Positions 9,768 to 36,093 of a DNA stretch of 64,000 nt are shown in pieces; position 1 is the stretch's first letter; every line of letters starts with the position of its first letter. The notes beneath the pieces were generated by a model. It searched no databases. It saw nothing but the letters and a program-made list of their open reading frames with translations, and was not told the DNA's origin. Made by a program: the position numbers and the translations under genes. This DNA comes from a virus: positions 52,238 to 116,237 of the IMG/VR virus record IMGVR_UViG_3300037137_001341; one strand, 5' to 3'.

Positions 9768-10424
9768 CTACCGGCCTCTCGCTCGCGATTCGTGCTGCGC
9801 CTTCAGCTTCAGCCTGTACCGCTCTCCGGCTGCGAGCCTACTCTGATGCTTCTCGTAGGCACTCGTGTAGTCCGACGGTGAACGGGGGCGGTGCTTGTGC
9901 TGATGCGACTCCCACGCCATGTACTCGGCCGGTGAGCGGTGCATGTTCTCCTCGTACCCCTCCCCAGGCACGTAGTACTCGTACTCGGCGATGCCGCGCT
10001 TCCCGAGCCTTCGCTCTCCCTTGCGCGACTTGCGCCTCCCTCGCCGTTGCCGATGCCAGTCGTCGCCTGGCTTCCGCGGCGCTTCCCTGCCACGCTGGTG
10101 CCGCTTGTTCGGCGTGAGCTTCTTCTGCCCCCACCAGGCGTACCCGAACAGGAGCCCGAGCCCGATGCCGAGCGCAACACCGCCAGCGACCACGCCCCAC
10201 GACGTCTCCTTGTACGTCGCCTCCGGGTCGGCCCCGAGCGCTGCCCAGTGCGGCAGGAAGTCATCCTCCCCCGGGATGCTCTGCCCGAGCCCGCCGATGC
10301 CAACGCGCATGGGGCCCGCACGCAGCGGGTTGATGCCCCAGCCCGGCACCGGCGCGTTCTGCCAGCCAGGCGTCGCGACGGCAAGCTCGTGGTAGTCGGC
10401 GTCAGGCACGTTCCAGTACGACAT
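9768..10424 (-). CDS. Membrane protein: GLG-motif N-domain, central TM, basic tail with LTPN/YEEN
   Basis: IGGLGQS, TM WGVVAGGVALGIGLGLLFGYAWW, R/K-rich tail. Confidence 0.75.
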   Translation of the reverse strand: MSYWNVPDADYHELAVATPGWQNAPVPGWGINPLRAGPMRVGIGGLGQSIPGEDDFLPHWAALGADPEATYKETSWGVVAGGVALGIGLGLLFGYAWWGQKKLTPNKRHQRGREAPRKPGDDWHRQRRGRRKSRKGERRLGKRGIAEYEYYVPGEGYEENMHRSPAEYMAWESHQHKHRPRSPSDYTSAYEKHQSRLAAGERYRLKLKAQHESRARGR

Positions 10425-10563
10425 CGTCTTCTCCTTCGTCCGACGCCATCGCGGGCACCGGGATCGTGTCCCGTTCGTTGTCGACGACCACGCCCCACTC
10501 CCAGGGGGAGGAGGCAAAGTCTTCCTGCGGCTCCTGGTTCTCCTGGTCGGGGTCCGGCGGCAT
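10402..10563 (-). CDS. Small acidic peptide
   Basis: MPPDPDQENQE...; GTGACT-17-TAGACT promoter-like element (10571-10599) 7 nt upstream. Confidence 0.45.
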   Translation of the reverse strand: MPPDPDQENQEPQEDFASSPWEWGVVVDNERDTIPVPAMASDEGEDDVVLERA

Positions 10564-10595
10564 GTGCCCCAGTCTACATGCCCCCTGGGCGCGAG

Positions 10596-10832
10596 TCACC
10601 TGCGGCCCCGCATCCACCAGGCTCCCAGGCCCACGGCCATGACCACCGCGGCGGAGATGACCACGGCGCCCCGCATGACGGCCATGTTGATGGCCGGCTG
10701 GGCCTGGTCCGAGGCGTCGTTGACCAGGGCCTCCATGGGCAGCGTGATCTCCGTGTCCTTCCCCCAGGGGAGGGGCAGGTCCACGAGGTACGTGATCGTC
10801 TTGCCGGGGCCGGCACCCATCGCTCGGTACAT
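10596..10832 (-). CDS. Small C-terminally anchored membrane protein, paralog of 11074-11460
   Basis: Shared GAGPG..TY.VD.P.PWGKDTEI and VGLxAWW. Confidence 0.8.
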   Translation of the reverse strand: MYRAMGAGPGKTITYLVDLPLPWGKDTEITLPMEALVNDASDQAQPAINMAVMRGAVVISAAVVMAVGLGAWWMRGRR

Positions 10833-10835
10833 GAG

Positions 10836-11069
10836 TCATTCCTCCGGTGGCGCGCCCGGAGGCACCCACCACGCTTCGACATCACAGTCGACGTCGCGCC
10901 ATCGCTGCTTGGTCACGCAGCCTCTGAGGAAGGCGTCCGTCTTCATGTGGGAGTCGAAGTACCCCTCCGCCTCCTCGCGCGTGTCACCCGCGAACACGTG
11001 TCTCACGATCGGATAGTCGTGCCCGCCGCCAGGCTCGTAGATGTCGACGACGAGACGCCACGCATGCAC
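10836..11069 (-). CDS. Small hypothetical protein
   Basis: 77 aa fills the gap in the operon. Confidence 0.6.
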   Translation of the reverse strand: MHAWRLVVDIYEPGGGHDYPIVRHVFAGDTREEAEGYFDSHMKTDAFLRGCVTKQRWRDVDCDVEAWWVPPGAPPEE

Positions 11070-11073
11070 CGCG

Positions 11074-11460
11074 CTACACGCCCTTCTTGATCCACCAGGC
11101 AGCGAGGCCGACCGAGAGGACCACCATGCCGGCGATGCCGAGCGCGGCCTTGATCGCGTCGTCCTTGACCATGTCGACCTTGGCGAACGTGATCTCCATC
11201 TGCTTCGCGATCTCGGGACGGATCACCTCGTCCATCACCTTCTTCACGAGCTTCGGCCCGTAGAGGTTCGCCTCGTCCTCCATGTCGTTGATGAGCTTCG
11301 TCTCCAGCGCGTTGATGTCCGGCGTGAGCGAAGCCCACGTGTCGGCGACCATCGCGTCGACCGGCACGACGATCTCCGTGTCCTTGCCCCACGGAAACGG
11401 CGCGTCGACCTTGTAGGTCTTCGTGGGACCGGGGCCTGCGCCGACGCCGTGGTAGCTCAC
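11074..11460 (-). CDS. C-terminally anchored membrane protein
   Basis: GTG start, SYHGVGAG..., PWGKDTEI, TM + KK. Confidence 0.8.
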   Translation of the reverse strand: MSYHGVGAGPGPTKTYKVDAPFPWGKDTEIVVPVDAMVADTWASLTPDINALETKLINDMEDEANLYGPKLVKKVMDEVIRPEIAKQMEITFAKVDMVKDDAIKAALGIAGMVVLSVGLAAWWIKKGV

Positions 11461-12098
11461 GCTGCCGCCTTCTGCTCGTACTCCCGCCGCAAGACCTCGT
11501 AGGCCACGTTGAACTTCTTCAGTCGCTCGACGTTCAATGCGCGCTGCCGATCGCTCTGCGGCCGGTCGGCGTTGTACTTCAACACGAGCTTCCGGTACTG
11601 CCGCTTGATCTGCTCCCAGTTCGAGCGCGGCGGCATCTTCAGCGCCTTGAGCGCCATCGCCACGGACATGCCGCCGGGAGCCTGCTGCGCCGGAGGCGGC
11701 GGGGATTCCTGACGGCCGTTGGTCCATCCCTCGGCGCGCTTCCTGGCCTTCGTCTCCCCGATGCAGACCTCGCAGATCGCGTCCGCCATGTAGTCCACGC
11801 GGGAATGTGCCAGGCAGCACGGGCGCCCGCACACGTCGCACTTCACGACCGCGTACGACCGGCAGGCTCGGGGTCTCCCGGTGCTCACGTCGGGCGAGGC
11901 GCAGGGCGTGGGGGACATGACGGCGAACGTCCACTTCGAGAGCGCGTTCTTCGTGAGATGCGAGCCCCACTCCTTCAGCTGTTCGGCGACCTCCTGAGCG
12001 GCGGTCGAGCTAGCGCCAAGGTTCTGCGCCATGACGGACGCGAACGTCTCCCACGGGATCTCTGCGGTGGCCCGCTTGAGGCGCTCGAAGAGATCCAT
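11457..12098 (-). CDS. Zn-finger + C-terminal J-domain-like protein (HPD replaced by NAD)
   Basis: CDVC..CCLAH..CEVC; WEQIKRQYRKLVLKYNADR...LKKFNVAYEVL. Confidence 0.8.
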   Translation of the reverse strand: MDLFERLKRATAEIPWETFASVMAQNLGASSTAAQEVAEQLKEWGSHLTKNALSKWTFAVMSPTPCASPDVSTGRPRACRSYAVVKCDVCGRPCCLAHSRVDYMADAICEVCIGETKARKRAEGWTNGRQESPPPPAQQAPGGMSVAMALKALKMPPRSNWEQIKRQYRKLVLKYNADRPQSDRQRALNVERLKKFNVAYEVLRREYEQKAAA

Positions 12099-12105
12099 CT
12101 GGCGC

Positions 12106-12801
12106 CTACGCCGCGGCAGCCGGCCGCGTCGCGTAGAAGGCGCCGAGACCGAGCACGGCCCCGATGCCCACGCCGGCCGCCATGCCCATCGGCTTGGTCT
12201 TCTTCCACAGGACGGCACCGAGGAGCCCCGCGACCGCGCCGCCACCGGCGTACATCGCGAGGTTCTTCTTGTCGTCATCCGTGAGCGGAGCCGCCGAGCC
12301 GAGACCGCGCAGATGACCACTGTGAACGACGGGGCGACGGGGAGGCCGCCGGCGCACCCTGCCGAGCCCGGCCGTAGCGCCTGCGTTGTACCAGGCGATC
12401 AGCGCCTTCTGGAAGCCGGCGTTCATGTGTGACCAGTCGTAGTCCGACAGAGACTCTGTCACATCGACGAGCATCATGTCGCACGAGTCCAGCTGGTTGA
12501 ACCGACCGAGCCCGTGCGCCTGACCCTTGTACGCAGACACGGTACACACGGAGATCCACCGTCCTGTATCCGTGTCGGTGTACCCACCGGTGTACCAGTG
12601 GTAGAGCGTGCTGCGGAATGTGTCCGGCAGCGCTTCCCACTCGCTGTCGTCCATGGCTTCCACTGCCGCGACGAGAGCCGCGTCCGTCCCGTCGCTCTTG
12701 TTGTACTGGCCGACGCCGCTGAAGTACTCGCCCATGCCCTTCATCCCGGGCGGCTTGTACGCGAAAAACTCACCCATTCCTGCTGGTGCTTGCTTGTACA
12801 T
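12106..12801 (-). CDS. Putative virion membrane protein with multiple GxG motifs
   Basis: GMGEFF, GMGEYF, HGLG, AGLG, LRGLG; two C-terminal hydrophobic segments. Confidence 0.75.
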   Translation of the reverse strand: MYKQAPAGMGEFFAYKPPGMKGMGEYFSGVGQYNKSDGTDAALVAAVEAMDDSEWEALPDTFRSTLYHWYTGGYTDTDTGRWISVCTVSAYKGQAHGLGRFNQLDSCDMMLVDVTESLSDYDWSHMNAGFQKALIAWYNAGATAGLGRVRRRPPRRPVVHSGHLRGLGSAAPLTDDDKKNLAMYAGGGAVAGLLGAVLWKKTKPMGMAAGVGIGAVLGLGAFYATRPAAAA

Positions 12802-12806
12802 TGGAG

Positions 12807-13856
12807 TTACCTCTTCCTTCGTAGAACGAGTGCGATCCCGAGCAGCGCCACAGCGCCGAGCCCATACATCGCCATGGTGCTCATCATCGGCGCGCTCGCG
12901 CCCCCGGTGTCCACCCGCGTGCCCTTCGTCTTGTCGGCCAGCGACAAGTACGGAGGCAGCACCGGGCCGCCGCCGCCAGCGAACCAGGCGTACAGGTTCG
13001 GCATCGACTTCTTCACGAAGTCCGGGCCCCCGCCCGCAGTGGTCGGAGCCGCCATGAGCCCGACCATGATCCCGATCCCAGTGGCGTTCGGGTACGTCTG
13101 CGCTCCCGCGGACGCGCTCACGGTCTTGCCGCTCATCACCGGGGACGCGGATACGATGTACTGCCAGAGCACGCTCGCCGCCGGCTCCCAGATCCCGCTG
13201 GTGTAGAAGTCGGGCGTGTAGGTCGCCTGCGCCGTCGTACTGAGCGCGAAGCCGCCGCTCGACAGCGCCATCAGCGACTTCACCTCGGCGAGCGTTGCCG
13301 CGTCACCGAGATCGAGCGTTATCCCGGTCACCGCAGCCGGCGCGCCTGCGCCGAGGCTTCCGTCATTGAACGCCCGCAGCGGGCCGAACGTGTTCATGCC
13401 CTCGTAGTGCGGCCCAAGGATCCCCTGGTTGTAGACCGAGATGGGCGTGCCACCGGCCTCGTCCGTATCTCCGAGCGAGCCATCGTTGTATGACCGCAGC
13501 GGTCCCGGCATCGAGGCGTCTGCCGGTGAGCCACCGACCACGCCGTCGGCGTACGCGAAGAGCGATCCAGCGGAGGCGTCACCGAGCCCGAGCGATCCGT
13601 CCGAGTACGCGAACAGCGGGCCAGGCATCGCGGACTCGTCCGGCGAGCCGCCGAACACGCCGTCCGAGTACGCCTGCAACGGCCCCTGCCCGAGCCCGAG
13701 CGATCCGTCCGAGTACGCGAACAACGGGCCAGGCATCTCGGCGCTTGCCGCCGAGCCCCCGACGACACCGTCGGCATATGCCTGCAGCGGGCCCTGACCC
13801 AAGCCGCCGGCGCCCTGGGTGATCTTGGTGCTTCCGAAATATGCGCCTAGCGGCAT
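12807..13856 (-). CDS. Putative virion membrane protein with N-terminal peptide repeats
   Basis: Repeats GPLxAYxDG(V/S) and DGSLG(LG); C-terminal TM + RRKR. Confidence 0.8.
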   Translation of the reverse strand: MPLGAYFGSTKITQGAGGLGQGPLQAYADGVVGGSAASAEMPGPLFAYSDGSLGLGQGPLQAYSDGVFGGSPDESAMPGPLFAYSDGSLGLGDASAGSLFAYADGVVGGSPADASMPGPLRSYNDGSLGDTDEAGGTPISVYNQGILGPHYEGMNTFGPLRAFNDGSLGAGAPAAVTGITLDLGDAATLAEVKSLMALSSGGFALSTTAQATYTPDFYTSGIWEPAASVLWQYIVSASPVMSGKTVSASAGAQTYPNATGIGIMVGLMAAPTTAGGGPDFVKKSMPNLYAWFAGGGGPVLPPYLSLADKTKGTRVDTGGASAPMMSTMAMYGLGAVALLGIALVLRRKR

Positions 13857-13885: not shown

Positions 13886-14113
13886 TCAGTCCCCTACGAA
13901 AGCCTCGATGCGGGGCCGCAGAAAGTACATGGCGATCCCGCCGGCTACGACGCCGACCCCGAGCCAGGCCCAGCCGGGCACACCGGCGCCGATCTCGTCC
14001 GCCCCGAGCCCAACGGCCCTCCCGAGGATCCCCATGGGGCCGCCCACGTTGTCCATCGTGGGCCCGAGCGCCTCGGCGCCAGCCGCAAGAGACCTCTTCT
14101 GCTGATCGGTCAT
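13886..14113 (-). CDS. Small membrane protein
   Basis: AVGLGAD; TM VPGWAWLGVGVVAGGIAMYFL. Confidence 0.75.
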   Translation of the reverse strand: MTDQQKRSLAAGAEALGPTMDNVGGPMGILGRAVGLGADEIGAGVPGWAWLGVGVVAGGIAMYFLRPRIEAFVGD

Positions 14114-14334
14114 CGGGACCTCGGCCTCACCGGATCACGCAGCACGAAATACCCGAGCACGATCGCCACCCCGAGGAGCCCGAGCGCCATCCGGTGCGCC
14201 AGCTGCACGGTCTCCGGCGACGGCTCCGTTGGAGCATCGCCCATCGCGCCCGAGCAGCCGCAGCCGCCCACGCCGACGAGCTTGCCGGACATGTCCCCGT
14301 AGGGAGGGACACCGGCGATGGCGACCAGATTCAT
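14110..14334 (-). CDS. Small membrane protein
   Basis: LVGVGGCGCSGAMGDA; TM + basic tail. Confidence 0.7.
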   Translation of the reverse strand: MNLVAIAGVPPYGDMSGKLVGVGGCGCSGAMGDAPTEPSPETVQLAHRMALGLLGVAIVLGYFVLRDPVRPRSR

Positions 14335-14336
14335 GT

Positions 14337-15254
14337 TCACTTCTTGTACTTCCGGTACATGTAGTAGCCGCCGCCACCCACCGCGAGCAGCGCAAGGATC
14401 CCCCACATCGCCGACGTCGAGGACGCCTGCGTCGTTGGCTTGTGGAACATCGGGATGCAGTTGCTGCCGACCAGATGTGATCCGGGCGGGCAAGTCGTCG
14501 CTACTGTCAGCGCCACGCAGTTGCCGTTCGCGTCCCACACGTACCCTGGTGAGCAGTCGCCCGCGCAGACGCTCGTGCCGTCCGTGAAGTGGAACGGTGA
14601 CCTGCCCGCTGGACACGTCACGCAGTTCCCGTTCGCGTCCCAGGCATGCTCCGGGTCACAGATCCCCGCGCACTGCCCCTTGAAGAGCGCGTGCCCCGGA
14701 GGACACGACGTCACCGCGCACGGCGGCGCCGCCATCAGCTTCGCCCACCAAGCGGGATCGTGTTGGCCGAGCCAGCAGAGGACGTTCCAGTCCTTGTTGT
14801 CCCCACCTCCCGCGTTGCAGTAGTCCCGCAGCTTCGCGAACTCCGGCGTGATGCACGCAGCAGGAGCCGGGAGTCCGGCGCCGGGACAGAACGGGAGCTT
14901 CGAGAGCGCGATGGCGGTCCACTGCGCCGCCGTGTCATTCACGCAGTCGAAGTCCGGGTTCAGCACGCGGCCATTGGCGCAGTTGGCGATAACGCCGGCC
15001 GTGTACGTGTCGATGCACGTCGGCGTCGGGCAGATGTTCGAGTCGGCAACAGAACACGGCGGAAAGGCGGCCAGCCTCCCACTCATCTTGTACTCGACGC
15101 CGAGCCCGGTCAGCGTTCCGCTTCTCTGAGCCGCACAGAGCCCGACCGCCTCGTCATGCTCCGCCTGCGAGACACACGTCGGCTCCGAGAGGGAGCGGAT
15201 CCCGCTGGGGGTCATCTCCAGGAGGCCGAGACCTGTCATCGATCGGTACGTCAT
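14337..15254 (-). CDS. Cys-rich C-terminally anchored protein
   Basis: MTYRSMTGLG leader; CPPG / CSPGYVWDANGNC modules; TM + RKYKK. Confidence 0.85.
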   Translation of the reverse strand: MTYRSMTGLGLLEMTPSGIRSLSEPTCVSQAEHDEAVGLCAAQRSGTLTGLGVEYKMSGRLAAFPPCSVADSNICPTPTCIDTYTAGVIANCANGRVLNPDFDCVNDTAAQWTAIALSKLPFCPGAGLPAPAACITPEFAKLRDYCNAGGGDNKDWNVLCWLGQHDPAWWAKLMAAPPCAVTSCPPGHALFKGQCAGICDPEHAWDANGNCVTCPAGRSPFHFTDGTSVCAGDCSPGYVWDANGNCVALTVATTCPPGSHLVGSNCIPMFHKPTTQASSTSAMWGILALLAVGGGGYYMYRKYKK

Positions 15255-15258
15255 CGGA

Positions 15259-15813
15259 TCACTTCTTCCTGAGCATCATGTACCCGAGGCCGAGCACAGC
15301 GACGGCACCGAGCCCGTACAGAGCCATGGTGGTCGTGCTCATGCCGGCCTGCGTGTCTCCGCCGCCGCCGGCGGAGCAGTGCGGAGTCTCCTGCGCCTTG
15401 TCCCAGTACGTCGGCGACTTGCTGGCGGCCCAGCAGAGCGAGTTCATCCCGGCCGTCGGCCCGTCGAAGAACGGGTACTTGTCGCAGTACGCGAGCCCCT
15501 GCAGATACGTTTCGTCGAGGCACGCCGGCATGCCACCGGCGAACGCCGTGTCGAAGCTCGGGCACCCTGGAAGGGCGTCCACGCCGCACTGATTCAGGTG
15601 AGCGCAGAGCGCGCTCCACACGGCGGCGCTCACGCCGGGGGGAGCCGGCTCCTTGGCCTTACATTCGGCGATGGCCGCGATCCAAGTCTGATCGAGGCAC
15701 GTGTTCCCGCCCTCCGTGGGGATCCCCTGACCGCACGGCAGAGCGGTCGCGTACTGCATGGCCTGCTCAAGCGTGGGGGGCGGTTCGGCTCCTATGCTGC
15801 TGTTTCGGTACAT
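15259..15813 (-). CDS. Cys-rich C-terminally anchored protein
   Basis: MYRNSSIG leader; YC...N.LCW motif shared with neighbours; TM + RKK. Confidence 0.85.
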   Translation of the reverse strand: MYRNSSIGAEPPPTLEQAMQYATALPCGQGIPTEGGNTCLDQTWIAAIAECKAKEPAPPGVSAAVWSALCAHLNQCGVDALPGCPSFDTAFAGGMPACLDETYLQGLAYCDKYPFFDGPTAGMNSLCWAASKSPTYWDKAQETPHCSAGGGGDTQAGMSTTTMALYGLGAVAVLGLGYMMLRKK

Positions 15814-15819: not shown

Positions 15820-16860
15820 TCACTTCTTTCTCATCACCATGTAGCCGACACCGAGTGCGACGAGCGCGCCGATCCCGAACATAGCCATGGTCGTGCTGCT
15901 CATTCCGGCTTGCTGCGTGCCGCCACCGCCACCGCCGGCGGACGGCGGGACACATGCGCCGGTGACCGGATCACGGGTGTACCCGTAGCCGTATACGGAG
16001 CAGTCGTCGGCCGGCAGGATGTGCTTGGTCGTGTCGGCCTGCAGCACGCAGGTACCGCTGGAGTCCCTGATGTAGCCGGTGTCGCACGGGGTCGGCAGCT
16101 TCACGTCTGCAACGCAGTCGCTTCCGACCAGATGGAAGCCCGCGCTGCACGTCTTGGGTGGTGGCGGCGTCGGCGCCGCTACAGGGATGCAGTTGCCGTT
16201 CGCGTCCCACACGTACCCTGGTGAGCAGTCGCCGACGCACTGGCCCTTGAACATCGAGTGCCCAGGAGGGCACGTCGTCGGGGCGGCGCCCGCAGTTGCC
16301 ACGCAGTTGCCGTTCGCGTCCCAGACATATCCCGGTGAGCAGTCGCCGACGCACACGAACTTCTTCGACGGCAGCATGAACATCGAGTGCCCAGGAGCGG
16401 CAACCGGAACGTCCATGAACTGCTGGTACAGATCCGGGAAGCGATGCAGCGTCCAGCAAGCCGCGTCGAGACTAGGGTTCCGTGGGTAATTGACCGGAAA
16501 CGTCTTGCAGTAGTTGATCTCGTTCCGAAAGACGGTCCCGACTTCCGACGTATCGGTGCATCCCGGAATCATGGCGATCCATGGCGCCGTGTCGATGTCC
16601 GAGCAGCCCAGCTTCTTGAACATGCCGCAGGTTCCGAGTGCAGCACGCGCATCCTGGAACTGCTGGTCGGTCAAGTTGGCCGGCTTCTGGCCGGTGTAGA
16701 ACAGCGACAGGATCTGGATCATCTGCGCGCTGAGACACGGCGCGTTAGCCAAGTCCGCGGGGCAGCCGTTCACTGCGATCCCGTAGAGCAGGTACGCGAC
16801 CTGATCCGGCGTCAGCGGGGCCTCGGCGGCCCCGAGTCCTCTCATCTCTCTGTACGTCAT
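15820..16860 (-). CDS. Cys-rich C-terminally anchored protein
   Basis: MTYREMRGLG leader; two CVGDCSPGYVWDANGNC modules; TM + RKK. Confidence 0.85.
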   Translation of the reverse strand: MTYREMRGLGAAEAPLTPDQVAYLLYGIAVNGCPADLANAPCLSAQMIQILSLFYTGQKPANLTDQQFQDARAALGTCGMFKKLGCSDIDTAPWIAMIPGCTDTSEVGTVFRNEINYCKTFPVNYPRNPSLDAACWTLHRFPDLYQQFMDVPVAAPGHSMFMLPSKKFVCVGDCSPGYVWDANGNCVATAGAAPTTCPPGHSMFKGQCVGDCSPGYVWDANGNCIPVAAPTPPPPKTCSAGFHLVGSDCVADVKLPTPCDTGYIRDSSGTCVLQADTTKHILPADDCSVYGYGYTRDPVTGACVPPSAGGGGGGTQQAGMSSTTMAMFGIGALVALGVGYMVMRKK

Positions 16861-25172: not shown

Positions 25173-25900
25173 CCCGCATCGCGCACCTGACGGACATGCA
25201 CCTGGACGGCGGGTACGAGCGCCGCGCTCGACTCGATAAAGCCATCGCGCATGCCGCGCAGCTGGGATCGCAGCATCTGCTTCTCACCGGCGATCTCACC
25301 GAGTCAGGAAGCCTCAGAGAGTTCGAGGACATCGCTGACGCGCTTCACGGCTGGCCCACCAACGCGGTTACGATCGTGCCAGGCAATCACGACGGGCACC
25401 CCGCTCGCTGGCGCGAGGCCCTCAACGGTCCGCTGCAGGAGTTCCGACTCACCAGCACCCCCGGGATGGTCACCGATGTTGGGGACGCCGTGATCGTACC
25501 GGTCTCGACACAGATCGGCAGCCGGGCTCCGTTGTTCTGGGCACTCGGGCATGTGAGCGCAGCGCAGGTCCGCATGCTGCACGCCGCCGCCGATGCCACA
25601 GCCGTCAGAAGGAAGGCGATGATCGTGGCGATGCACCACGGGCCGCAACTGAATCTCCTGCAGCCTCTCGACGGCCTCACGAACCGGCACGCCATCGGCG
25701 CGCTCGTGAAGAAGCATCCTCACGTGTGGCTTTGCTGCGGACATGACCATCGCGCCCTGGACCTGGGGCATGTGTTCGTGGCCGCCAGCGTGGCGGGACA
25801 TGACGACCCTCTGCGCGTCTATGACGTTCGCGGGCCGCAGCTGGCGCCGGTCTACAAGAGCGGGAAGAGTGGCTCGTACTTCGACTGGCTAGGTCTGTAG
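25169..25900 (+). CDS. Calcineurin-like metallophosphoesterase
   Basis: DxH, TGDLT, PGNHD, HH, GHDH motifs. Confidence 0.92.
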   Translation: MTRIAHLTDMHLDGGYERRARLDKAIAHAAQLGSQHLLLTGDLTESGSLREFEDIADALHGWPTNAVTIVPGNHDGHPARWREALNGPLQEFRLTSTPGMVTDVGDAVIVPVSTQIGSRAPLFWALGHVSAAQVRMLHAAADATAVRRKAMIVAMHHGPQLNLLQPLDGLTNRHAIGALVKKHPHVWLCCGHDHRALDLGHVFVAASVAGHDDPLRVYDVRGPQLAPVYKSGKSGSYFDWLGL

Positions 25901-26517: not shown

Positions 26518-27563
26518 CAGCGTCTCCCTCGGAAGAAGTACACGCCGAGCGCAACGGCGGCCAGTGCGCCAACGGCAACGAGCACCTTCGCGCGGTTGTC
26601 CTGCGCTCGCTGGTCCGCCTCACCGAGCGCGAGGTTCATGCGCTGGCGGAAGCAGTCGGGGTCTCCGTTGCAGCCGATGACCCAATCGAGTGCCTCTACC
26701 GGCTCGACGCCACGGCTCTTCAGAGCGGCGAGCACGGTGAGGTCCGCGGCGTTCTGCGGGACGTTTAGCGCGAGATCGAGCCAGGCACGCTCCTGCACCA
26801 TCGATCCGATATACGCAGCAAGCTCGTTAAGCTCCTGCGTGCGTTCCATGTCATCGAGGCTCTCTCCAGCGGCGACTTGCTGTCGCGCTGCAGCGGCAAT
26901 CTGCGCGTGTGTCGGAGGCGGAACCGGAGCCGCGGCCGACGCCGGAGGAGGAGACAGCACCGTGCCGGGAGGAGGCTCGGCGGCAGAGACGAACTGGATC
27001 TTGTTCGCACTGTCCGTCGTCATCTTGCAGACGGCGATCGGCTGACACGGCACAGAGTCGCCGCCGAAGTTAAACCGCAGTTCGCGCTCACACCAGCCGG
27101 TCGGCGTTCCGTACGCGCGCAGCGTCGTGCTCACCGCGCTCCACGCCTCGAAGGCGTCCTGGAAGTTCTGCGCGCAGGGCGCCGGATCCTTCCTGTTGTG
27201 GAGCTTGTCCTGGACCCTTGCCGCCAAGTCGTACGCGAGCGCGCTGGCCTGCTTGTAGTCCTTGCCCGGCTTGACCCTCTGCTCCGCGATGACCGTGTTC
27301 GCTACGATGTGAGCCGCCGTGATCGCGTAGTTCAGCGGCCACACCGCGGCGACCAGCGGATCGGCAGGGATCACCACAGATGCGCCCTGGTCACCGGCAT
27401 ATGCCAGAATCGTATGGACGTCTCCCCCACCGCTGAGCATCGCCTGCGCAGTCTCGACGGCGACGCGATGTAGCTCCGCAAGCCCGGGGCCACCCCAGAG
27501 GTAGTCGTACGGTTCCGGCACCACCTGCGGGACCGGCAGTTCACCGAAGCCCCCGTAGCTCAC
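26517..27563 (-). CDS. C-terminally anchored membrane protein
   Basis: GTG start SYGGFGEL; TM + RGRR; GGAGG RBS. Confidence 0.75.
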   Translation of the reverse strand: MSYGGFGELPVPQVVPEPYDYLWGGPGLAELHRVAVETAQAMLSGGGDVHTILAYAGDQGASVVIPADPLVAAVWPLNYAITAAHIVANTVIAEQRVKPGKDYKQASALAYDLAARVQDKLHNRKDPAPCAQNFQDAFEAWSAVSTTLRAYGTPTGWCERELRFNFGGDSVPCQPIAVCKMTTDSANKIQFVSAAEPPPGTVLSPPPASAAAPVPPPTHAQIAAAARQQVAAGESLDDMERTQELNELAAYIGSMVQERAWLDLALNVPQNAADLTVLAALKSRGVEPVEALDWVIGCNGDPDCFRQRMNLALGEADQRAQDNRAKVLVAVGALAAVALGVYFFRGRR

Positions 27564-27799
27564 GACTGCCTCCAGATCATGTACCCCGACGCAACCAGGA
27601 GCCCGAGGCCGATGAACCCGACAGTCGACAGACGTACCTGCGACGTCTCCTGCTCTGAGAGCGTCTTGCTGATCTGCAACAGCTGCTTTTGCTCCAGCGT
27701 CAGCGGCTTGCAGTCGCCGTTCTCGTCCCAGGCGTAGCCGGGGCTGCATATGCCGACGCACTGGCCCTTGAAGAGCGCATGACCAGAAGCGCAGGTCAT
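27560..27799 (-). CDS. Small Cys-module membrane protein
   Basis: CASGHALFKGQCVGICSPGYAWDENGDC + TM. Confidence 0.75.
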   Translation of the reverse strand: MTCASGHALFKGQCVGICSPGYAWDENGDCKPLTLEQKQLLQISKTLSEQETSQVRLSTVGFIGLGLLVASGYMIWRQS

Positions 27800-29946
27800 C
27801 GCCTCATCATCCTCGCTGCGGCCCATCCCGCAAGGGCGCCGCCGCCGACGGCAAGAAGCCCGTAGTTCAGCGCGTCGCCACGGCGCTGGCCCCGGCGGCG
27901 CGCCTCCTTCACAGCGGTGCGGAACGAGGCTGCGTTCGCGGCCACCTTGCGCACAGCATCCCGCTTGATGGCCGCGCTCGCGACGAGCCACTCGTTGCCG
28001 GTATGTGTCGCCGCCACGTCGGCCGCCTGCGCCATCTGCTGCTGGACCGAGTACTGGCTCGTGGCCATCGAGACCGTTCGCGCCACGTCACGCTGCACAA
28101 GAGCCGACGCCGCGGCGGCCTGCTGGAGCGACCCATGCAGCCACCGACCCCACTCCGGGGTCGAGCAGCCACCAACCTCGGTGCCTCCACTCCACGCGAC
28201 CGTTCCGATCTTCTGAAGCTCCTCCTTGTCGGAGTGCTCGTAGCTGTCCCACTTGGTCACGTTGCGGTCTGCGAACTGCCCCTCGACGCAGTCGTAGTCC
28301 CACTTCCACATGTTCGGCTTGCCGGCGCGACGATGGCAGCGGTTGACCGTGCGGGGATCTTCTGCCGCCGCGTACTCGGAGCCCTTCATCGCCAGGACCA
28401 CCTGGAACGGCGTCACGTACCGGCGGGCTCTCCAGAACGCCAAGGAGGAGAGGGCGTCGCAGCTGGGGCTCTGCTCGGTGATGTTCGGGATGCGAGCCTG
28501 CCCGAGCGCGGCGCGCGAGTAGTCATACGAGTCGCGAACGACGATCGGGTCGGTGAAGAACTGCAGGTACGGACACCCGGCCGGAACGACGCAGGAGCGT
28601 GTGACCGGATACGGGTAGCGCATGTACTGGTGCGCCTTCGCGTCGATCGGGACCGGGTTGCCGTTCTGGTCGTAGACGAAGTCGAGCGTGTTGCCGCCGG
28701 CTTCCATCTCAGGAAACAGGCGGATTCCGTCCCCGCTCGCCGCCGTGCAGCTGATCCCTTGCGAACGACCGTACGGGCGCAGCCATTCATCGTTCACCTG
28801 CATGAGCCCGTCGAGGCTTCCCTGCATCTTCTGCCAGTACAGCTGGTACTGGACCCACAATGTCGCCGCGAGATCCGTGCAGACCGCGGTCCCGGCCGCC
28901 GCCGCCTGACGCGCTGCCTGCTGCGCCAAGCTGAGCTTCTCGCTGTCGGTCGGACCGAATCCGAGCGCGTCTGCCAGAACCGGGACGAGCGCGCCGCCGA
29001 TGATGTTCCCCAGAATGGCTCCGATCGGAGCGGGGAGCCCGAACAGCTGCCCGATGGCAGCGCACATGGTGCCGCACGCGCCGATGATGATGCCCTCAAC
29101 GCCCGCGAGCGAGATTGAGCCAGTGCTGATCGCGTCCACGGTAAGCTCGCACATGGAGAACGCGGTGCCGGGAATGATCTGCAGCATTGCGGCCCGACCG
29201 CAGGAGTGCAGGAACGCGGTCGGATCCGTGTTCGTAATGATCGGGATGCCGAACCGCGACATGTAGGAGGACCCGAGCGCGAGCGCCCACGATTCGGCGC
29301 CGTCCACGGTCGTCGGCAGATTGTGGATCATCTGCCCGGCGGCGATCAGTTCGGGAGGCAGACCGATCTGTCCGCAGTTCGTGAGGACGAACGACTGCAT
29401 CATCGCCACCGCGGCTTCGGGCGTCGGGTTCGTCAGCAGGTTCGGGTGCGAGAAGATGTAGGCCTCGCACCAGTTGACGGTCTCGTCGTCGCTGAGCGGG
29501 TTCCTGATGCTGATGTCGGGCGCGTTCGGCAAGCCGCTACGCGCCTTGGCCAAGGTATCGCGCCCCCGCTGGACATATCCCTGAAAGACCGGTCCGGCCC
29601 AGGCGGCTGCCTGCTCCCCCGCCCACTTCTTGATGGTATCTCTGCCGCTGCTCGACGTCGGGTCCACGATGGGGACCCACGGCACCTGGATGCCGGTGTC
29701 ACTGGCGAAGTCGCTCCTCGCCTTGTCCGCCGCCGCCTGCGTCACATACCCCTGCGCGCCGGGGCTGATGGTGTTCACGTACGCGGGCGCCCCGGCGGGG
29801 CCTCCGGCGACCACGGCCTTGTAGAGCCCCACTTGCGTGCCGGTGTCGGCTGGGATGGCGATGCCGCCGTTCACGGAAATCTGCCCCAGCCCACTCCGGC
29901 GCGGGACCCAGATGTGCGGGCCACGGCCGCCGCCGGAGAAGGTCAT
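27796..29946 (-). CDS. Large membrane-associated putative virion protein (possible entry/ejection role)
   Basis: RSGLGQ leader, internal Gly-rich hydrophobic hairpin, Cys-containing domain, C-terminal TM + RR. Confidence 0.7.
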   Translation of the reverse strand: MTFSGGGRGPHIWVPRRSGLGQISVNGGIAIPADTGTQVGLYKAVVAGGPAGAPAYVNTISPGAQGYVTQAAADKARSDFASDTGIQVPWVPIVDPTSSSGRDTIKKWAGEQAAAWAGPVFQGYVQRGRDTLAKARSGLPNAPDISIRNPLSDDETVNWCEAYIFSHPNLLTNPTPEAAVAMMQSFVLTNCGQIGLPPELIAAGQMIHNLPTTVDGAESWALALGSSYMSRFGIPIITNTDPTAFLHSCGRAAMLQIIPGTAFSMCELTVDAISTGSISLAGVEGIIIGACGTMCAAIGQLFGLPAPIGAILGNIIGGALVPVLADALGFGPTDSEKLSLAQQAARQAAAAGTAVCTDLAATLWVQYQLYWQKMQGSLDGLMQVNDEWLRPYGRSQGISCTAASGDGIRLFPEMEAGGNTLDFVYDQNGNPVPIDAKAHQYMRYPYPVTRSCVVPAGCPYLQFFTDPIVVRDSYDYSRAALGQARIPNITEQSPSCDALSSLAFWRARRYVTPFQVVLAMKGSEYAAAEDPRTVNRCHRRAGKPNMWKWDYDCVEGQFADRNVTKWDSYEHSDKEELQKIGTVAWSGGTEVGGCSTPEWGRWLHGSLQQAAAASALVQRDVARTVSMATSQYSVQQQMAQAADVAATHTGNEWLVASAAIKRDAVRKVAANAASFRTAVKEARRRGQRRGDALNYGLLAVGGGALAGWAAARMMRR

Positions 29947-31770: not shown

Positions 31771-31776
31771 GTGCGT

Positions 31777-32148
31777 TCAGACCTTTGCTGCGCGTTTTCT
31801 GTCCGTCCGCCAGGCCATGTACGCGAAGATGCTGAAGCCGGCAGCAACCGTGGCCCAGGCCCACTGAGGCACCTGATCGATTGCTGTTCGGAGGTCGCGC
31901 CCGAAGTTGCTCGGCTTCGGACCGCCAGTGAGGTAGGCCGCCCAGCCCTGCGTGAAGAGATCGGGCGGCGAGTAGTACCCGAGGTTCACCAGCGTCGCCG
32001 GGTCCGGGTGCCCGTTCGGATCCATCCCGTACGTCGCGTTCCGCGCCGTCTGCTGGTACGCGAGGATCGCGCCATCCGTTGCGCTATCCCAGTGCCCCGT
32101 TTGAGGGACGCCGAGATTCTGCTGAACCTTCTGGATCGCCGTGGGCAT
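31777..32148 (-). CDS. Peptidoglycan-binding (PG_binding_1-like) membrane protein
   Basis: IQKVQQNLGVPQTGHWDSATDGAILAYQQ...NGHPDPATLVNLG; TM + basic tail. Confidence 0.75.
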   Translation of the reverse strand: MPTAIQKVQQNLGVPQTGHWDSATDGAILAYQQTARNATYGMDPNGHPDPATLVNLGYYSPPDLFTQGWAAYLTGGPKPSNFGRDLRTAIDQVPQWAWATVAAGFSIFAYMAWRTDRKRAAKV

Positions 32149-32154
32149 GGACGC

Positions 32155-32553
32155 TCACCTCTTCTTGGAAGCGCGGTAGATGAGGGCTCCACCGACAGCG
32201 ACGGCCGCGATGGCCCCGCCGTAGAGCATCCAGTTCGTGCCGCCGGTGCCGCCGAACATGCCTGCGCTGGTGCCAGGTTTCTTCGTCCCCGTGTCGCCGT
32301 ACACGACCACCTCGGGAAGCGTGATCACGCCGATGCTGTTGCCCGAGAGGCTCCCGTTGCCGACCCCGTTCATGCCGTCCGGGCTGAGCCCCACCTGCTT
32401 CGGCAGAATGGCGCGGAGCCTCGCGTTCAGGAACGAGATGTCCCTGTACTGGTGCTGCCCAGCGTACCCGAGCCCTGCCATCGGAGGACGAGCCTGCTGC
32501 CACTCCGCGTTCAGCAGAGCGTAATCCTCGTAGGCGATTGTTCCGTAGGCCAT
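32155..32553 (-). CDS. C-terminally anchored membrane protein
   Basis: MAGLG, MNGVG; TM + KKR. Confidence 0.75.
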   Translation of the reverse strand: MAYGTIAYEDYALLNAEWQQARPPMAGLGYAGQHQYRDISFLNARLRAILPKQVGLSPDGMNGVGNGSLSGNSIGVITLPEVVVYGDTGTKKPGTSAGMFGGTGGTNWMLYGGAIAAVAVGGALIYRASKKR

Positions 32554-32557
32554 CGGC

Positions 32558-33316
32558 TCACTTCCTCTTCTTCGACATGTACAGGCCGGCACCGACCGCG
32601 GCGACGACGAAACCACCGAGCATCCAGGCCGTGGCGCTGGAGGACTTGCCCGTCGTCGGCCCGACGTGCGGAGCATCGGCGATCTTCGCCGGGAGCACCA
32701 TGTTCGGGCAATCCAGATCGAAGCGGATGCTTGTACATCCAGCCGGCAGCGAGGGGAGCACCGGATGGAAGCTGATGCCAAGCTCATGGAGCTTGAACAT
32801 CGCTCCGCAGGTCGCGCTGTCGTACACACCGGTCTGCGGGATCGCGTTGTAGCCGGCGGCGGTCAGCGCAGTGCTCAGCGCATCCTGCAGATCATCCGCG
32901 ATATTGCTCTTCTGGTTCAACGCGAGGAAGCACGGATCGGCCGCCGGCCCGGCTGGGGGCGAGGTCCCACCACTAGAGGGCGCGACCGGCGCGGCGGTCG
33001 AGTCCGACGGGGCCTGAGAAGGAGCAGGCGCAGCCGCGACCCACGACGCCGGCAACTTCACGACGTCCCCGACCTTCGCGCAGAACCCGTACTGCGTGCA
33101 CTTGTGCGCCGGGTTCGCCGTGGCAAGTTCGGTCCACCGGTTGCCGTTGCCCGTGATCGCCTTCGCGACGGACGTGCCGGTGTCCCCGCTCCTCCAGGTG
33201 TACGTCGGCGCCGATGACAGACCGAGCCCCCCGAAGCCCATGTTCGAGCCGTCGAACAGGCCGCCGCCGTAGCCGCCGCCACCGAAGATGCCTTCTCGCG
33301 TGTGAACCTGGATCAT
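32558..33316 (-). CDS. LysM-like + PG-binding-like membrane-anchored protein
   Basis: YTWRSGDT..SVA...WTELATAN...VGDVVKLP; LQDAL..AGY..IPQTGVYDSATC; TM + KKRK. Confidence 0.8.
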   Translation of the reverse strand: MIQVHTREGIFGGGGYGGGLFDGSNMGFGGLGLSSAPTYTWRSGDTGTSVAKAITGNGNRWTELATANPAHKCTQYGFCAKVGDVVKLPASWVAAAPAPSQAPSDSTAAPVAPSSGGTSPPAGPAADPCFLALNQKSNIADDLQDALSTALTAAGYNAIPQTGVYDSATCGAMFKLHELGISFHPVLPSLPAGCTSIRFDLDCPNMVLPAKIADAPHVGPTTGKSSSATAWMLGGFVVAAVGAGLYMSKKRK

Positions 33317-33318
33317 TG

Positions 33319-33594
33319 CTATCTCCTGACGAGACAAAAACCGCCGATGACGCCGATTGCACCGAGGAGCCATGGCGTCCACGGCGCGTAGGTCTCCGCA
33401 GTCGCCGCCGCCTGACCGAGTCCGTTGGCAGGGACGAAGCCGCGCCTGAGCATCCCCGGCTGGAGCCCCATCGTGCGCGGCGGGATCATGCCCAGGCCCT
33501 GCGTCGACCAGTTCGACGGAACGTGGATGACGTCACGGAAGATGGCCGCGCCCTCTTCGCGCTCCTGCAGACCCTTTCCATCTCGACGGTACAT
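33319..33594 (-). CDS. Small membrane protein
   Basis: QGLG, NGLGQ; TM + RR. Confidence 0.7.
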   Translation of the reverse strand: MYRRDGKGLQEREEGAAIFRDVIHVPSNWSTQGLGMIPPRTMGLQPGMLRRGFVPANGLGQAAATAETYAPWTPWLLGAIGVIGGFCLVRR

Positions 33595-33597
33595 GAC

Positions 33598-33918
33598 CTA
33601 GTAGCTGCCTTTGTAGCCGGAGAAGTGGAGGTACGCATACGTCGCAAGCCCCAGGGCCGCGATGAACAGCACCGTCTTCCCGACGGACGGGCCAGCCGTG
33701 TCGTCCCCAAGCCCTTGCATCCCCGCTTCGAGCCCGAAGTCGTTCGGTCGCTCCGCCCACGGGAGCCCGAACTGCGGGCGCGTGTAGATCGGCCCGTGGA
33801 ACCGCGTCGGGTACGAGTGCAGCATCACGGTGTACGGGTTCGGCACGCCAGGGGGCACCGGACCGTCGTACGTGTTCAGCGACTGGCCTAAACCAGCCAT
33901 GCAGGGAACGCACGCCAT
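33598..33918 (-). CDS. Small membrane protein
   Basis: MAGLGQ, MQGLGDD; C-terminal TM. Confidence 0.75.
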   Translation of the reverse strand: MACVPCMAGLGQSLNTYDGPVPPGVPNPYTVMLHSYPTRFHGPIYTRPQFGLPWAERPNDFGLEAGMQGLGDDTAGPSVGKTVLFIAALGLATYAYLHFSGYKGSY

Positions 33919-33921
33919 CGT

Positions 33922-34317
33922 TCAGCCCTTCCTCTTGTTCGCGACGATGCCCATGACGCCGAGACCGAGCACCCCGGTGAAGAGCCCGACCGGCACACCG
34001 ATCCAGCCCCACGTGGTCGCATCCTGCCGAGACGGCGCAATCGCCTTGCCCGCCTGGTAGCTCAGCGCGCCTGCGACGCCGAGGATCGCCAGCATCCAGG
34101 CCATGTCCGCGCTCGTCATCTTCGTGTCCACCGGGACGCCAGTCCCTGTGTCAGCCGGGGCATCCCCGAGCCCACGTATCGCAGCCACCACGGGGCTCAG
34201 CGCGAAGAACCGTGACTTGCCGACCGCGCCGGTGCCGGCGGCTGCCTGCGTCATGGCGCCGGCAGGGACGTCCTGCGAGAAGACGTCGAACGTGGGCAAA
34301 ATGCTTTGGCTGTCCAT
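33922..34317 (-). CDS. Small membrane protein (2 TM)
   Basis: IRGLGDA; two TM; KRKG tail. Confidence 0.75.
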   Translation of the reverse strand: MDSQSILPTFDVFSQDVPAGAMTQAAAGTGAVGKSRFFALSPVVAAIRGLGDAPADTGTGVPVDTKMTSADMAWMLAILGVAGALSYQAGKAIAPSRQDATTWGWIGVPVGLFTGVLGLGVMGIVANKRKG

Positions 34318-34324
34318 GTGCTCC

Positions 34325-35020
34325 TCACTTCTTCATCAGGGTCGCGGCCACGATGCCGACCGCGACGCCGACGATGGCGAATCCCGCGAAGATGCCGAAC
34401 TTGGAGCCGGAATCCGTCGCCGGAGCATCGGCACCGAGCCCGTTCACTGGCCACGCCTCCTCGTTCGGGATCCAGGTCCCGCCGGGATCGGGATGCGTGA
34501 CGTTCTGCGGACTCACGCCGGGAGGAAGCTCCCAGAGCAGCTGCCTCTCGCGCACGGTGTCCAGCTGGCTCTGATCGATCGCGACCGCGCCGCCGGGCAC
34601 GTACATGACGGGCTGGCCAGTGGTCGCGTCGATCACCTCCGACGGCTGGTAGTCGATCGAGTTCACCAAGTAACCCGGCATCGAAGCGTGGTCCGCGAAC
34701 ACGCCGTAATCCGGGTGGATGTTCCCCTGCGTGCCGTGCGGATCGAACACGCCATTGCCTTGTACATCGTCCGCTGCTGCGAGCGTGTTTAGCTCGTTCG
34801 CGTAATCCTTGATTCCGATGTCTGCGGTCATGCCGTTGTCTCCCAGGCCCGCGATGTTGCGCCCACGCGCGCCGCGGTACATGTCGTACGAAGGGTTCAT
34901 GCCGCTCGGACGCATGTCCGGCGGCCCGATCTCGTCGATGCTCGGAAGGTCGCCGCCGAACATCGGCTGGCTCGCGTACACCGGGTACGGGGGACGCAGG
35001 GCTCGAAGGACGTTGCTCAT
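34325..35020 (-). CDS. C-terminally anchored membrane protein
   Basis: IAGLGDN, VNGLGAD; TM + KK; AAGGAG RBS. Confidence 0.8.
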   Translation of the reverse strand: MSNVLRALRPPYPVYASQPMFGGDLPSIDEIGPPDMRPSGMNPSYDMYRGARGRNIAGLGDNGMTADIGIKDYANELNTLAAADDVQGNGVFDPHGTQGNIHPDYGVFADHASMPGYLVNSIDYQPSEVIDATTGQPVMYVPGGAVAIDQSQLDTVRERQLLWELPPGVSPQNVTHPDPGGTWIPNEEAWPVNGLGADAPATDSGSKFGIFAGFAIVGVAVGIVAATLMKK

Positions 35021-35607
35021 GTGATGCTCCTTGGCGCTCCCGGATCTTCATCGAGGCTCACCGTGTAAAAAGTCGTCACACGATCGAGCATGCCGCGCTC
35101 GTCCGTGCCCCCGACGGGGTCACAAACTACCCATTCCCCGCTTCGCGGTTCCTTCACGCGCGTGAACACGTGGCTGTACTGGCCGGCCTCACCGAAGCCG
35201 ACGACCACGAACTCGGCGACGCGGCCAAGCTGCAACGCCATCGTCGCGATGATCGTCGCCATGTCATCGCAATCACCGATCGCACTTCCGTGCGCGGCTA
35301 CTTCCTCGACGAGCCTCTGTGCGTCCTTCACGAGTTCGGTGTGCAGGGGGTCGTTGACGTAATGAACGCGCTCCGTCACCCAGTACCGCACCGCCAGGAT
35401 CTCGCCGAGGTAGTCCTTCGGCTGCACCTGTCGAACGATCTGCTCGACCATGCTCCGCACGAGCATGCTCTTCTCGCCCCGTTCGCCATGCGTCGCGCTC
35501 ACCATGGCCCGGAGTGTGTCCGGGTGACCATGAAAAGCGCTCAATGAGTGTGGCGGGTTAGCGGAGAGCAAGGGTATCCCGAGCCGGGGGTCGGGAGCGC
35601 CCTGCAC
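35017..35607 (-). CDS. Transglutaminase-like (papain-fold) Cys-His-Asp enzyme, putative maturation protease
   Basis: YVNDP, GDCDD, YSHVF, WVVCDP: catalytic triad in transglutaminase order. Confidence 0.85.
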   Translation of the reverse strand: MQGAPDPRLGIPLLSANPPHSLSAFHGHPDTLRAMVSATHGERGEKSMLVRSMVEQIVRQVQPKDYLGEILAVRYWVTERVHYVNDPLHTELVKDAQRLVEEVAAHGSAIGDCDDMATIIATMALQLGRVAEFVVVGFGEAGQYSHVFTRVKEPRSGEWVVCDPVGGTDERGMLDRVTTFYTVSLDEDPGAPRSIT

Positions 35608-35612
35608 TCGGA

Positions 35613-35641
35613 AGCCTACCGGCGCCAGGCTCGTAACTCAA
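35613..35641 (-). promoter_or_regulatory. Sigma70-type leaderless promoter
   Basis: TTGAGT-17nt-TAGGCT, 5 nt before GTG at 35607. Confidence 0.55.
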
Positions 35642-35679
35642 GCGCGGGATATGTCCTGGGGTTTTCCGGCTACTTCGTC

Positions 35680-35886
35680 TCAGCCCCGCGGCTCCGACAG
35701 CATCCATGCGCGCCCCTCGGCGCGCCGCATCGCGACCACGCGGGCCGTGCCCTTATCGAGCAGCACGCTCGCGATGGCGAGCGCGGCGAAGATGCTGGTC
35801 CCGAGCCACCAAACCTTTCTGTCCTCCTCGCTCGTGTCAGCGCCGATGCCGATGGAGGAGCAGCAGGTTCCGATTTGGCGGTACAT
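35680..35886 (-). CDS. Small membrane protein
   Basis: MYRQIG..SIGIGAD; TM. Confidence 0.7.
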   Translation of the reverse strand: MYRQIGTCCSSIGIGADTSEEDRKVWWLGTSIFAALAIASVLLDKGTARVVAMRRAEGRAWMLSEPRG

Positions 35887-35889
35887 GAT

Positions 35890-36093
35890 CTACCGGCTCC
35901 CCCGAAGCCCGAGCGGGTCCTTCGCGTCAATGGCGAAGAACGCGACCGCGAGGCCCACGAGGAGGCCGCCTGCGACCCAGCTGGTGCCCGAACCCATCTG
36001 CGCCGTGTCGGCGCCGATCCCAGACATGTGTCTGCGCCCGTGCGGCCTGACCAGTGGCGCGCCGCCGTAGCCACCTGCGACGCTGTGGTACAT
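35890..36093 (-). CDS. Small membrane protein
   Basis: MSGIGAD; TM. Confidence 0.7.
   Translation of the reverse strand: MYHSVAGGYGGAPLVRPHGRRHMSGIGADTAQMGSGTSWVAGGLLVGLAVAFFAIDAKDPLGLRGSR

Follow-up and report, generated by a model that had tools for sequence, protein, structure and literature searches.

The window analysed here is the last 64 kb (positions 52,238-116,237) of the 116,237-bp IMG/VR record IMGVR_UViG_3300037137_001341, and between window positions 9768 and 36093 it carries a virion (particle-building) module of 37-39 proteins on the minus strand. A short linear motif, G-(L>V,M,F,I)-G, recurs in the flexible N-termini and linkers of roughly half the module's proteins, most of them tail-anchored. 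This is a genuine, conserved motif that is confined to the virion module in nine genomes. The module is headed by a gene for a transglutaminase-fold Cys-His-Asp enzyme, which is a core gene of the same lineage. Our favoured reading, to which we give a probability of roughly 0.4, is that the motif is a recognition motif cut by this enzyme. Both elements had been singled out in a first-pass annotation of the window, which proposed an adenovirus-like maturation system of a bacterial virus in which the enzyme processes or cross-links virion proteins at the motif. The record is linear, 66% G+C and 85% complete. Genes in the window were called with a codon-bias model, and almost every gene between window positions 1 and 60 kb lies on the minus strand.

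Motif copies were counted with hydrophobic segments masked, and expectations were taken from 2000 within-segment shuffles. The 37 minus-strand proteins of 9768-36093 contain 39 copies of G-[LVIM]-G against 15.2 +/- 3.8 expected, a count reached by none of the 2000 shuffles, whereas the window's remaining 52 proteins are at chance (15 versus 14.2 expected). Within the module, G-L-G (25 versus 4.9 expected) and G-V-G (9 versus 4.3) are in excess; G-A-G (8 versus 8.8) and G-S-G (2 versus 4.6) show no enrichment. Because the excess is limited to the module and G-A-G and G-S-G are at chance, the motif is specific and not the effect of a glycine-rich background, and the enrichment supposed by the first-pass annotation holds. 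Other parts of its description need adjusting. The annotation had placed the motif in "about 25" and in "nearly every" module protein; in approximately 22 of 39, one or more sites lie outside membrane segments, and thus the number was close but the wider phrase too strong (the 369-aa, 348-aa and 280-aa (aa, amino acid) proteins and the enzyme itself have none there). It had also called the motif rare in the replication proteins, where it is indeed not enriched but occurs at chance level and is not depleted.

The sites have a preferred surrounding. Met stands at position -2 in 8 of the 39 (6.7-fold), and the extended form [MIL]-x-G-[LVIM]-G occurs 13 times in the module against 2.1 expected (z 7.5), compared with 4 against 4.7 elsewhere. 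The stricter M-x-G-[LVIM]-G is found seven times in the module (0.5 expected) and not once in the rest of the 116-kb genome. Most window sites continue with Q, A, E, D or G, in agreement with the A/D/Q/E noted earlier. Sites are over-represented approximately 1.7-2.2x in the first 30 residues of proteins and in the interval 5-25 residues ahead of a membrane helix.

A DNA-level origin of the motif was considered and rejected. The codons vary, with 58 sites encoded by 27 different 9-mers, which places the signal at the protein level. Of the Leu codons in G-L-G, about 70-85% are CTC (about 80% in this module; 24-69% for Leu overall), with avoidance of CTG, but this preference is seen in and outside the module in all genomes examined. 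Neither GGCC nor CCWGG is strongly avoided.

Relatives in IMG/VR were reached via the 369-aa protein, the 259-aa protein and the enzyme. The material comprised whole sequences of G001-G005 and G017 and parts of three other genomes, of which G016 was left out because gene calls on its pieces looked unreliable. The enrichment is repeated in the same gene block of eight related genomes (111-179 kb records), with observed and expected module counts of 38 and 15.7 (G001), 33 and 11.7 (G002), 38 and 12.6 (G003), 19 and 11.1 (G004), 19 and 9.6 (G005), 30 and 13.6 (G017), 30 and 12.6 (G008), and 37 and 18.0 (G014). Outside the module, the motif is at or below expectation in each wholly examined genome (G017: 43 versus 40.1). 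The favoured hydrophobic residue differs by clade, being Met and Phe in G014 and Phe in G008. Across 206 sites pooled from six diverse genomes, M or T is favoured at position -2, where E, K and Q are nearly excluded; S, A or N is preferred at -1 and A or E at +1, Y is enriched at +2, and P or F at +3.

In orthologue alignments the motif residues are 69% identical, compared with 57% for the ten residues on either side and 52% protein-wide (p 0.01 and 0.002). At one and the same aligned site the hydrophobic residue changes freely among L, V, M and F, lineage-specific insertions bring new motif copies, and peptide modules ending in the motif have been exchanged between proteins of different genomes. 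The clearest single site is G69-L70-G71 of the 33598-33918 protein, which is invariant in seven orthologues, down to 31% identity, and falls exactly at the border between a conserved domain and a linker that varies in length and sequence. This pattern bears on the idea that the motif has no single partner: G-L-G could be a by-product of segment composition and of paralogy among module proteins, the segments themselves being glycine- and aromatic-rich, cohesive or flexible low-complexity stretches that form a matrix between membrane and shell. Many sites do lie within Gly-, Ala- and Tyr/Phe-rich stretches, and some in paralogues or internal repeats. We regard this explanation as improbable, as shuffles that keep segment composition never attain the observed count, G-A-G and G-S-G stay at chance, single sites are invariant amid variable flanks, and the context preference includes the exclusion of charged residues at -2.

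The enzyme encoded at 35017-35607 matches the Pfam profile PF01841 (Transglut_core) with 27.5 bits (curated cut-off 23; E 4e-6) over profile positions 6-108 of 108, and its C113, H146 and D163 are invariant in 32 aligned homologues, which bears out its earlier identification as a transglutaminase-like protein with a Cys-His-Asp triad. From comparison with these homologues, the true start is likely a TTG at 35571, which would give the same length of 184 aa. The AlphaFold2 model has a predicted local distance difference test (pLDDT) score of 86.7. Its best Foldseek matches are 3kd4 and 3isr, putative cysteine proteases (E 4e-5), followed by PNGase, TglA, LapG, TgpA, Rad4 and the pseudomurein isopeptidase PeiP; the Foldseek probability is 1.00 for 3kd4, 3isr, PNGase, LapG and TgpA. 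With the LapG structure 4fgq the match has an E value of 5e-3, a probability of 1.00 and a template modelling (TM) score of 0.42-0.45. On the basis of this model, we are confident that the predicted protein has an alpha/beta transglutaminase/papain-like fold with a complete catalytic triad. Neither the enzyme nor its homologues have a hydrophobic N-terminal leader or export signal.

More than 295 homologues of the enzyme at 57-77% identity are present in metagenomes. All five relatives examined first have the gene, as do 15 of the next 16. Among them is every one of the 13 records with a completeness of 90% or more, and they extend to a clade in which the capsid-like protein shares only 33-38% identity. 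No relative is seen to lack it, the sole record without it being a 45%-complete fragment. We conclude that the enzyme gene belongs to the lineage's core. Its TGA stop codon overlaps the ATG of the next, motif-bearing gene at 34325-35020 (ATGA), an arrangement by which the two genes are read as translationally coupled. The first-pass annotation had given the enzyme a promoter of its own; none was found upstream in a sigma-70 scan.

Six-frame hidden Markov model (HMM) searches of the 116-kb, 85%-complete record detected no C5 or C48 (adenain/Ulp1) match at E values up to 10, in agreement with the annotation, which had seen no gene of this type, and no C39, S77, S78 or ClpP homologue. Among the families tested, no protease-like gene other than that of the enzyme was detected. 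A core pair comprising an SGNH/GDSL hydrolase and an SLT lytic transglycosylase (E 3e-19) is encoded in the left arm of the record (G000:C1:15527-16804), about 36 kb before the window, and is kept across relatives. Given this separate lytic transglycosylase, a cell-wall role of the enzyme is not required.

Under the favoured reading, the enzyme is the likeliest reader of the motif and would act as an endopeptidase during particle maturation, taking off short N-terminal peptides and, again at the motif, separating domains from their linkers or anchors. If the chain were cut behind the second Gly, Leu would occupy P2, where papain-like enzymes (clan CA) usually prefer it. The pooled residue preferences at -2, -1, +1 and +3 look like the subsite context of such an enzyme. 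Protease activity of the enzyme, its recognition of this motif and the position of the cut are all inferred. In favour of this account, a core protease-fold enzyme heads the motif-bearing module, and no protease of the other families tested was found in the record. The motif and the enzyme are each real and consistent with the processing idea of the first-pass annotation.

Several points count against cleavage by this enzyme. No tool result connects it to the motif. The enzyme folded with residues 1-84 of the 33598-33918 protein scored 0.01 against a mark of 0.32, which is evidence neither way. Co-occurrence in related genomes had been put forward as a check, and every relative does have both motif and enzyme; for that very reason their co-occurrence gives no information. 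Cuts at several sites would free peptides of just 4-10 residues, and conserved Cys pairs in the N-terminal peptides before some sites would be odd in discarded propeptides. The copies in the 837-aa protein, which are about 10 aa apart and followed by conserved aromatics, are more typical of repeated docking motifs. Viral transglutaminase-fold enzymes of known function include cell-wall isopeptidases, PeiP being among the fold matches, and another protease could be encoded in the missing part of the record.

The main rival, unlikely though far from negligible, is that the motif serves for docking or targeting and stays uncleaved, its hydrophobic side chain, set between two glycines, fitting into a pocket of the capsid shell or of a scaffold. 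Bound in this way, it would hold membrane proteins and the DNA-binding 837-aa protein at the shell, or bring proteins into the particle, and the enzyme would have another role, for example as a virion-borne cell-wall or other hydrolase. The model for such a peptide is the encapsulin targeting peptide, which has the consensus D-G-S-L-G-I-G-S-L and whose binding relies on a glycine hinge and the hydrophobic residues about it (PMC7925596). As with encapsulin cargo peptides, a short Gly-hydrophobic-Gly peptide is found here on flexible ends of many otherwise unrelated proteins, and the D-G-S-L-G-L-G repeats of the 12807-13856 protein come close to the consensus. Unlike cargo peptides, these copies are internal repeats, most sites are without the Ser-Leu part, the candidate capsid protein is jelly-roll-like, and no encapsulin or HK97-fold shell was detected; the binding partner is a putative one.

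Repeated, closely spaced copies, as in the tail of the 837-aa protein and again in the 12106-12801 protein, are explained by docking at least as well as by cleavage, and the enrichment of Tyr at +2 and of Phe or Pro at +3 fits a bound peptide. Docking would also accommodate the clustering of sites at N-termini and shortly ahead of membrane helices, the free variation of the hydrophobic residue at an aligned site, the shuffling of motif-ended modules among proteins of different genomes, and the conservation of Cys pairs in short N-terminal peptides. It gives no reason, however, for the position of a highly conserved protease-fold enzyme at the head of the module. As far as is known, motifs common to many proteins of one virus have mostly proved to be protease sites. 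Cleavage and docking are compatible with each other; in phage T4, a targeting peptide ends in a protease site.

A third explanation takes the enzyme as a true transglutaminase or sortase-like transpeptidase and the motif as an acyl donor site by which virion proteins are cross-linked to each other or to another acceptor. The Cys-His-Asp fold fits acyl-enzyme chemistry, Gln follows the motif in 8 of the 39 window sites, and some sites are followed closely by a membrane helix and a basic tail, the layout of a sortase signal. Yet Gln at +1 is neither conserved among orthologues nor enriched in the pooled set, the distance to the helix ranges from 7 to more than 100 aa, and fold matches of assigned activity are mostly hydrolases or non-enzymes. 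We consider cross-linking very improbable.

The proteins that carry the motif, together with the enzyme and the candidate capsid protein, are listed in the table below. According to a hydropathy scan, 22 of the module's 37-39 proteins are tail-anchored, with a soluble N-terminal part, a single C-terminal helix and a short basic tail. This abundance of predicted tail anchors suggests a membrane-containing particle.

Table. Window coordinates of the enzyme, the candidate capsid protein and motif-bearing features of the virion module.
Feature	Position	Strand	Remarks
Two small paralogous membrane proteins	35890-36093, 35680-35886	-	Each has G-I-G-A-D-T about 10 aa ahead of the helix
Transglutaminase-fold Cys-His-Asp enzyme	35017-35607	-	Longest open reading frame 196 aa; Pfam PF01841
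Tail-anchored 231-aa protein	34325-35020	-	Two G-L-G (aa 58, 194), the second about 10 aa before the anchor
Small membrane protein	33922-34317	-	I-R-G-L-G-D site; [MV]-[RK]-G-L-G in 3/4 orthologues
Tail-anchored 106-aa protein	33598-33918	-	N-terminal Cys pair, then G-L-G; second G-L-G is G69-L70-G71
Tail-anchored 91-aa protein	33319-33594	-	Two G-L-G sites
Tail-anchored 252-aa protein	32558-33316	-	Gly/Phe/Tyr-rich N-terminal peptide ending in G-L-G
Tail-anchored 132-aa protein	32155-32553	-	P-M-A-G-L-G at aa 27, retained in 3/3 orthologues
Membrane protein, 716 aa	27796-29946	-	N-terminal S-G-L-G-Q at aa 19
837-aa protein	21148-23661	-	Lys/Arg-rich N-terminal half, hydrophobic helices, C-terminal tail
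259-aa protein, candidate capsid	20213-20992	-	Most conserved of the module; G-L-G at aa 24 following an invariant N-terminal arm
Cys-rich tail-anchored paralogues	14337-15254, 15259-15759, 15820-16860	-	Two begin M-T-Y-R-x-M-x-G-L-G
Two 75-aa membrane proteins	13886-14340	-	V-G-[LV]-G sites; site of 13886-14113 in 4/5 orthologues
Tail-anchored 349-aa protein	12807-13856	-	Repeat units ending D-G-S-L-G(-L-G)
231-aa protein	12106-12801	-	Five or six sites, some being N-terminal copies of G-M-G-E-[YF]-F
Distal protein	10596-10832	-	N-terminal M-G-A-G-P-G; sole G-L-G inside the membrane helix
Small membrane proteins, distal module end	9768-10424, 11074-11460	-	N-terminal or pre-helix G-[IV]-G

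Among individual proteins, both G-L-G sites of the 34325-35020 protein are retained in four of five orthologues, and the N-terminal peptide module of the 32558-33316 protein is also found inside the 33598 orthologue of two distant relatives. The 837-aa protein has eight G-[LV]-G sites, six of them in the C-terminal tail, including three G-V-G-[EF]-Y copies at the spacing mentioned above; Met replaces Val in orthologues, and the repeats are also kept in distant clades. The N-terminal copies of the 12106-12801 protein resemble those of the 837-aa protein. As a candidate second signature, at the N-terminus, 11 of 39 module proteins begin with M-(S/T/A)-Y or M-Y-(R/H/K), often directly before G-x-G, and M-S-Y-x-G-[LMV]-G starts are seen again in the distant relatives G008, G014 and G017.

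Cys pairs adjoin the motif in several places: M-x-C-x-x-C at the N-terminus of the 106-aa protein (33598-33918) and its orthologues, and C-C or C-x-C beside G-[IV]-G in the 35680-35886 and 14110-14340 proteins. Metal binding or lipid attachment is possible for these pairs. The proteins 14337-15254, 15820-16860 and 27560-27826 have Cys-rich repeats of about 25 aa (C-x-x-G-H-x-x-F-K-G-Q-C ... G-Y-x-W-D-x-N-G-N-C); these resemble disulfide-type modules, with TIL and EB matches below threshold, and are located in tail-anchored proteins without a signal peptide. A near-identical C-terminal anchor, made up of a Ser/Thr-rich stretch, a helix with G-x-G pairs and R-K-K, is common to 12807-13856, 15259-15759 and 15820-16860, and its presence in three otherwise different proteins suggests an exchange of anchor modules between paralogues.

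Apart from the enzyme, a DnaJ domain and matches below threshold (PG_binding_1, Cys-rich), searches of the larger module proteins against Pfam, PHROG and NCBIfam returned nothing. The DnaJ (J-domain) match, in 11457-12098, is above the Pfam cut-off; the gene lies inside the virion module and is kept in all relatives, and by eye the domain has N-A-D where His-Pro-Asp is usual. Peptidoglycan-binding-like segments are found in the tail-anchored proteins 31777-32148 and 32558-33316 (PG_binding_1 20.4 bits, below the cut-off of 23; LysM-like by eye), which hints at a host with a cell wall.

More than 700 metagenome proteins are related to the 259-aa protein at 57-89% identity. Its model is a jelly-roll-like beta sandwich with a pLDDT of 63 and generic jelly-roll matches (best Z 7.1; Foldseek E >0.04), which makes it a candidate capsid protein. 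Profiles of three conserved non-membrane proteins matched nothing in the PDB below an E value of 0.29, and the 369-aa protein matched only unnamed viral clusters in the ESM Atlas. No encapsulin or HK97 shell protein (PF04454, PF05065) was detected, nor was a packaging ATPase match of the A32 or FtsK family. Records of the lineage measure 111-182 kb; among records with classed ends, relatives with direct terminal repeats measure 111-180 kb. We take the lineage to be one of large prokaryotic viruses that are probably membrane-containing and tailless. The capsid-like protein occurs in bins labelled Pirellulales, Pseudomonadota and Gemmatimonadota and in that of one archaeon, which names no host; the scattered labels look like the result of mis-binned viral contigs. 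A literature search returned no account of this lineage, nor of transglutaminase-like virion proteases.

Some further observations concern the wider genome. A plus-strand island of two genes (24105-25900) breaks the minus-strand module and is common only to G001; by eye, its products are glycosyltransferase-like and metallophosphoesterase-like. Immediately before the window, G000:C1:47962-52236 encodes a 1424-aa protein with a tyrosine-recombinase (Phage_integrase) domain inside a much larger unknown protein, which is kept in G002-G004. A 35-kb viral contig that looks unrelated (L011, IMGVR_UViG_3300028610_002683, 51% G+C) encodes distant homologues of the enzyme (25% identity) and of the SLT protein, and two neighbouring small proteins on it begin M-S-M-G-L-G and M-G-I-G.

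Taken together, we advance as a tentative proposal, with the odds somewhat against it, that this lineage of prokaryotic viruses, probably membrane-containing and tailless, matures its particles by a transglutaminase-fold cysteine protease with cut sites at G-(L/M/F/V)-G in more than 20 virion proteins. If the enzyme does cut at this tag, viral maturation proteolysis would have had a further, independent origin, and the mature products of a dark proteome could be predicted simply. If the tag is instead a docking peptide, it would be a general address label for building a membrane-containing particle, with a possible use in loading proteins.

Of known enzymes, LapG offers a precedent for the chemistry: this transglutaminase-like protease is a proven endopeptidase whose recognition motif consists of two residues with small side chains (PMC10990149), which shows that the fold can cut at a short small-residue motif. 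The enzyme is of the same fold class as LapG/BTLCP. The two differ in that LapG works in the periplasm, depends on calcium and has one adhesin as its sole substrate, while the enzyme here is without a leader; structural alignments are 12-15% identical, and the Pfam scan gave no LapG-family match.

In T4-type and phiKZ-type phages, many head proteins have a short N-terminal peptide ending in a prohead protease motif, and several module proteins likewise open with an 8-10 residue peptide ending in G-L-G. Unlike the T4-type (gp21) and phiKZ-type systems, no S77/S78 protease and no HK97 capsid was found here, the motif is another one, and many sites are internal or adjoin membrane helices. The novelty first claimed for a bacterial virus needs qualifying in light of these prohead proteases: motif-directed head processing as such is known from tailed phages, and what would be new, if the cleavage reading holds, is the enzyme fold, the motif and the virus type. 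We know of no virion-maturation role for the transglutaminase fold. Motif-directed processing of many virion proteins is, to our knowledge, found in tailed phages, adenoviruses and giant viruses, and is not known in prokaryotic viruses with internal membranes.

The adenovirus protease (AVP, adenain) cuts at (M/I/L)XGX-G and (M/I/L)XGG-X, which are shared by many capsid and core precursors (PMC3386624). In both cases there is one viral cysteine enzyme and a short Gly-based motif common to many virion proteins. Here, 13 of the 39 sites fit (M/I/L)-X-G-X-G, and several sites are found in a basic DNA-binding protein. The label "adenovirus-like" applied by the first-pass annotation is apt to that extent. 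It does not extend to the second form, as [MIL]xGGx is not enriched in the module (12 versus 10.6 expected), and the excess of [MIL]xGxG (19 versus 10.7; z 2.6) comes wholly from [MIL]xG[LVIM]G. Further differences from adenovirus are that the motif here needs a hydrophobic residue flanked by the two glycines, that no homologue of clan CE (C5/C48) was detected in the record, that the candidate enzyme is transglutaminase/papain-like in fold, and that cleavage is something we infer. The resemblance to the adenovirus system is thus real yet partial. Should the lineage mature its particles as proposed, it would possess a maturation system outside the tailed phages that is convergent in logic, and partly in site, with the proteases of adenovirus and giant viruses.

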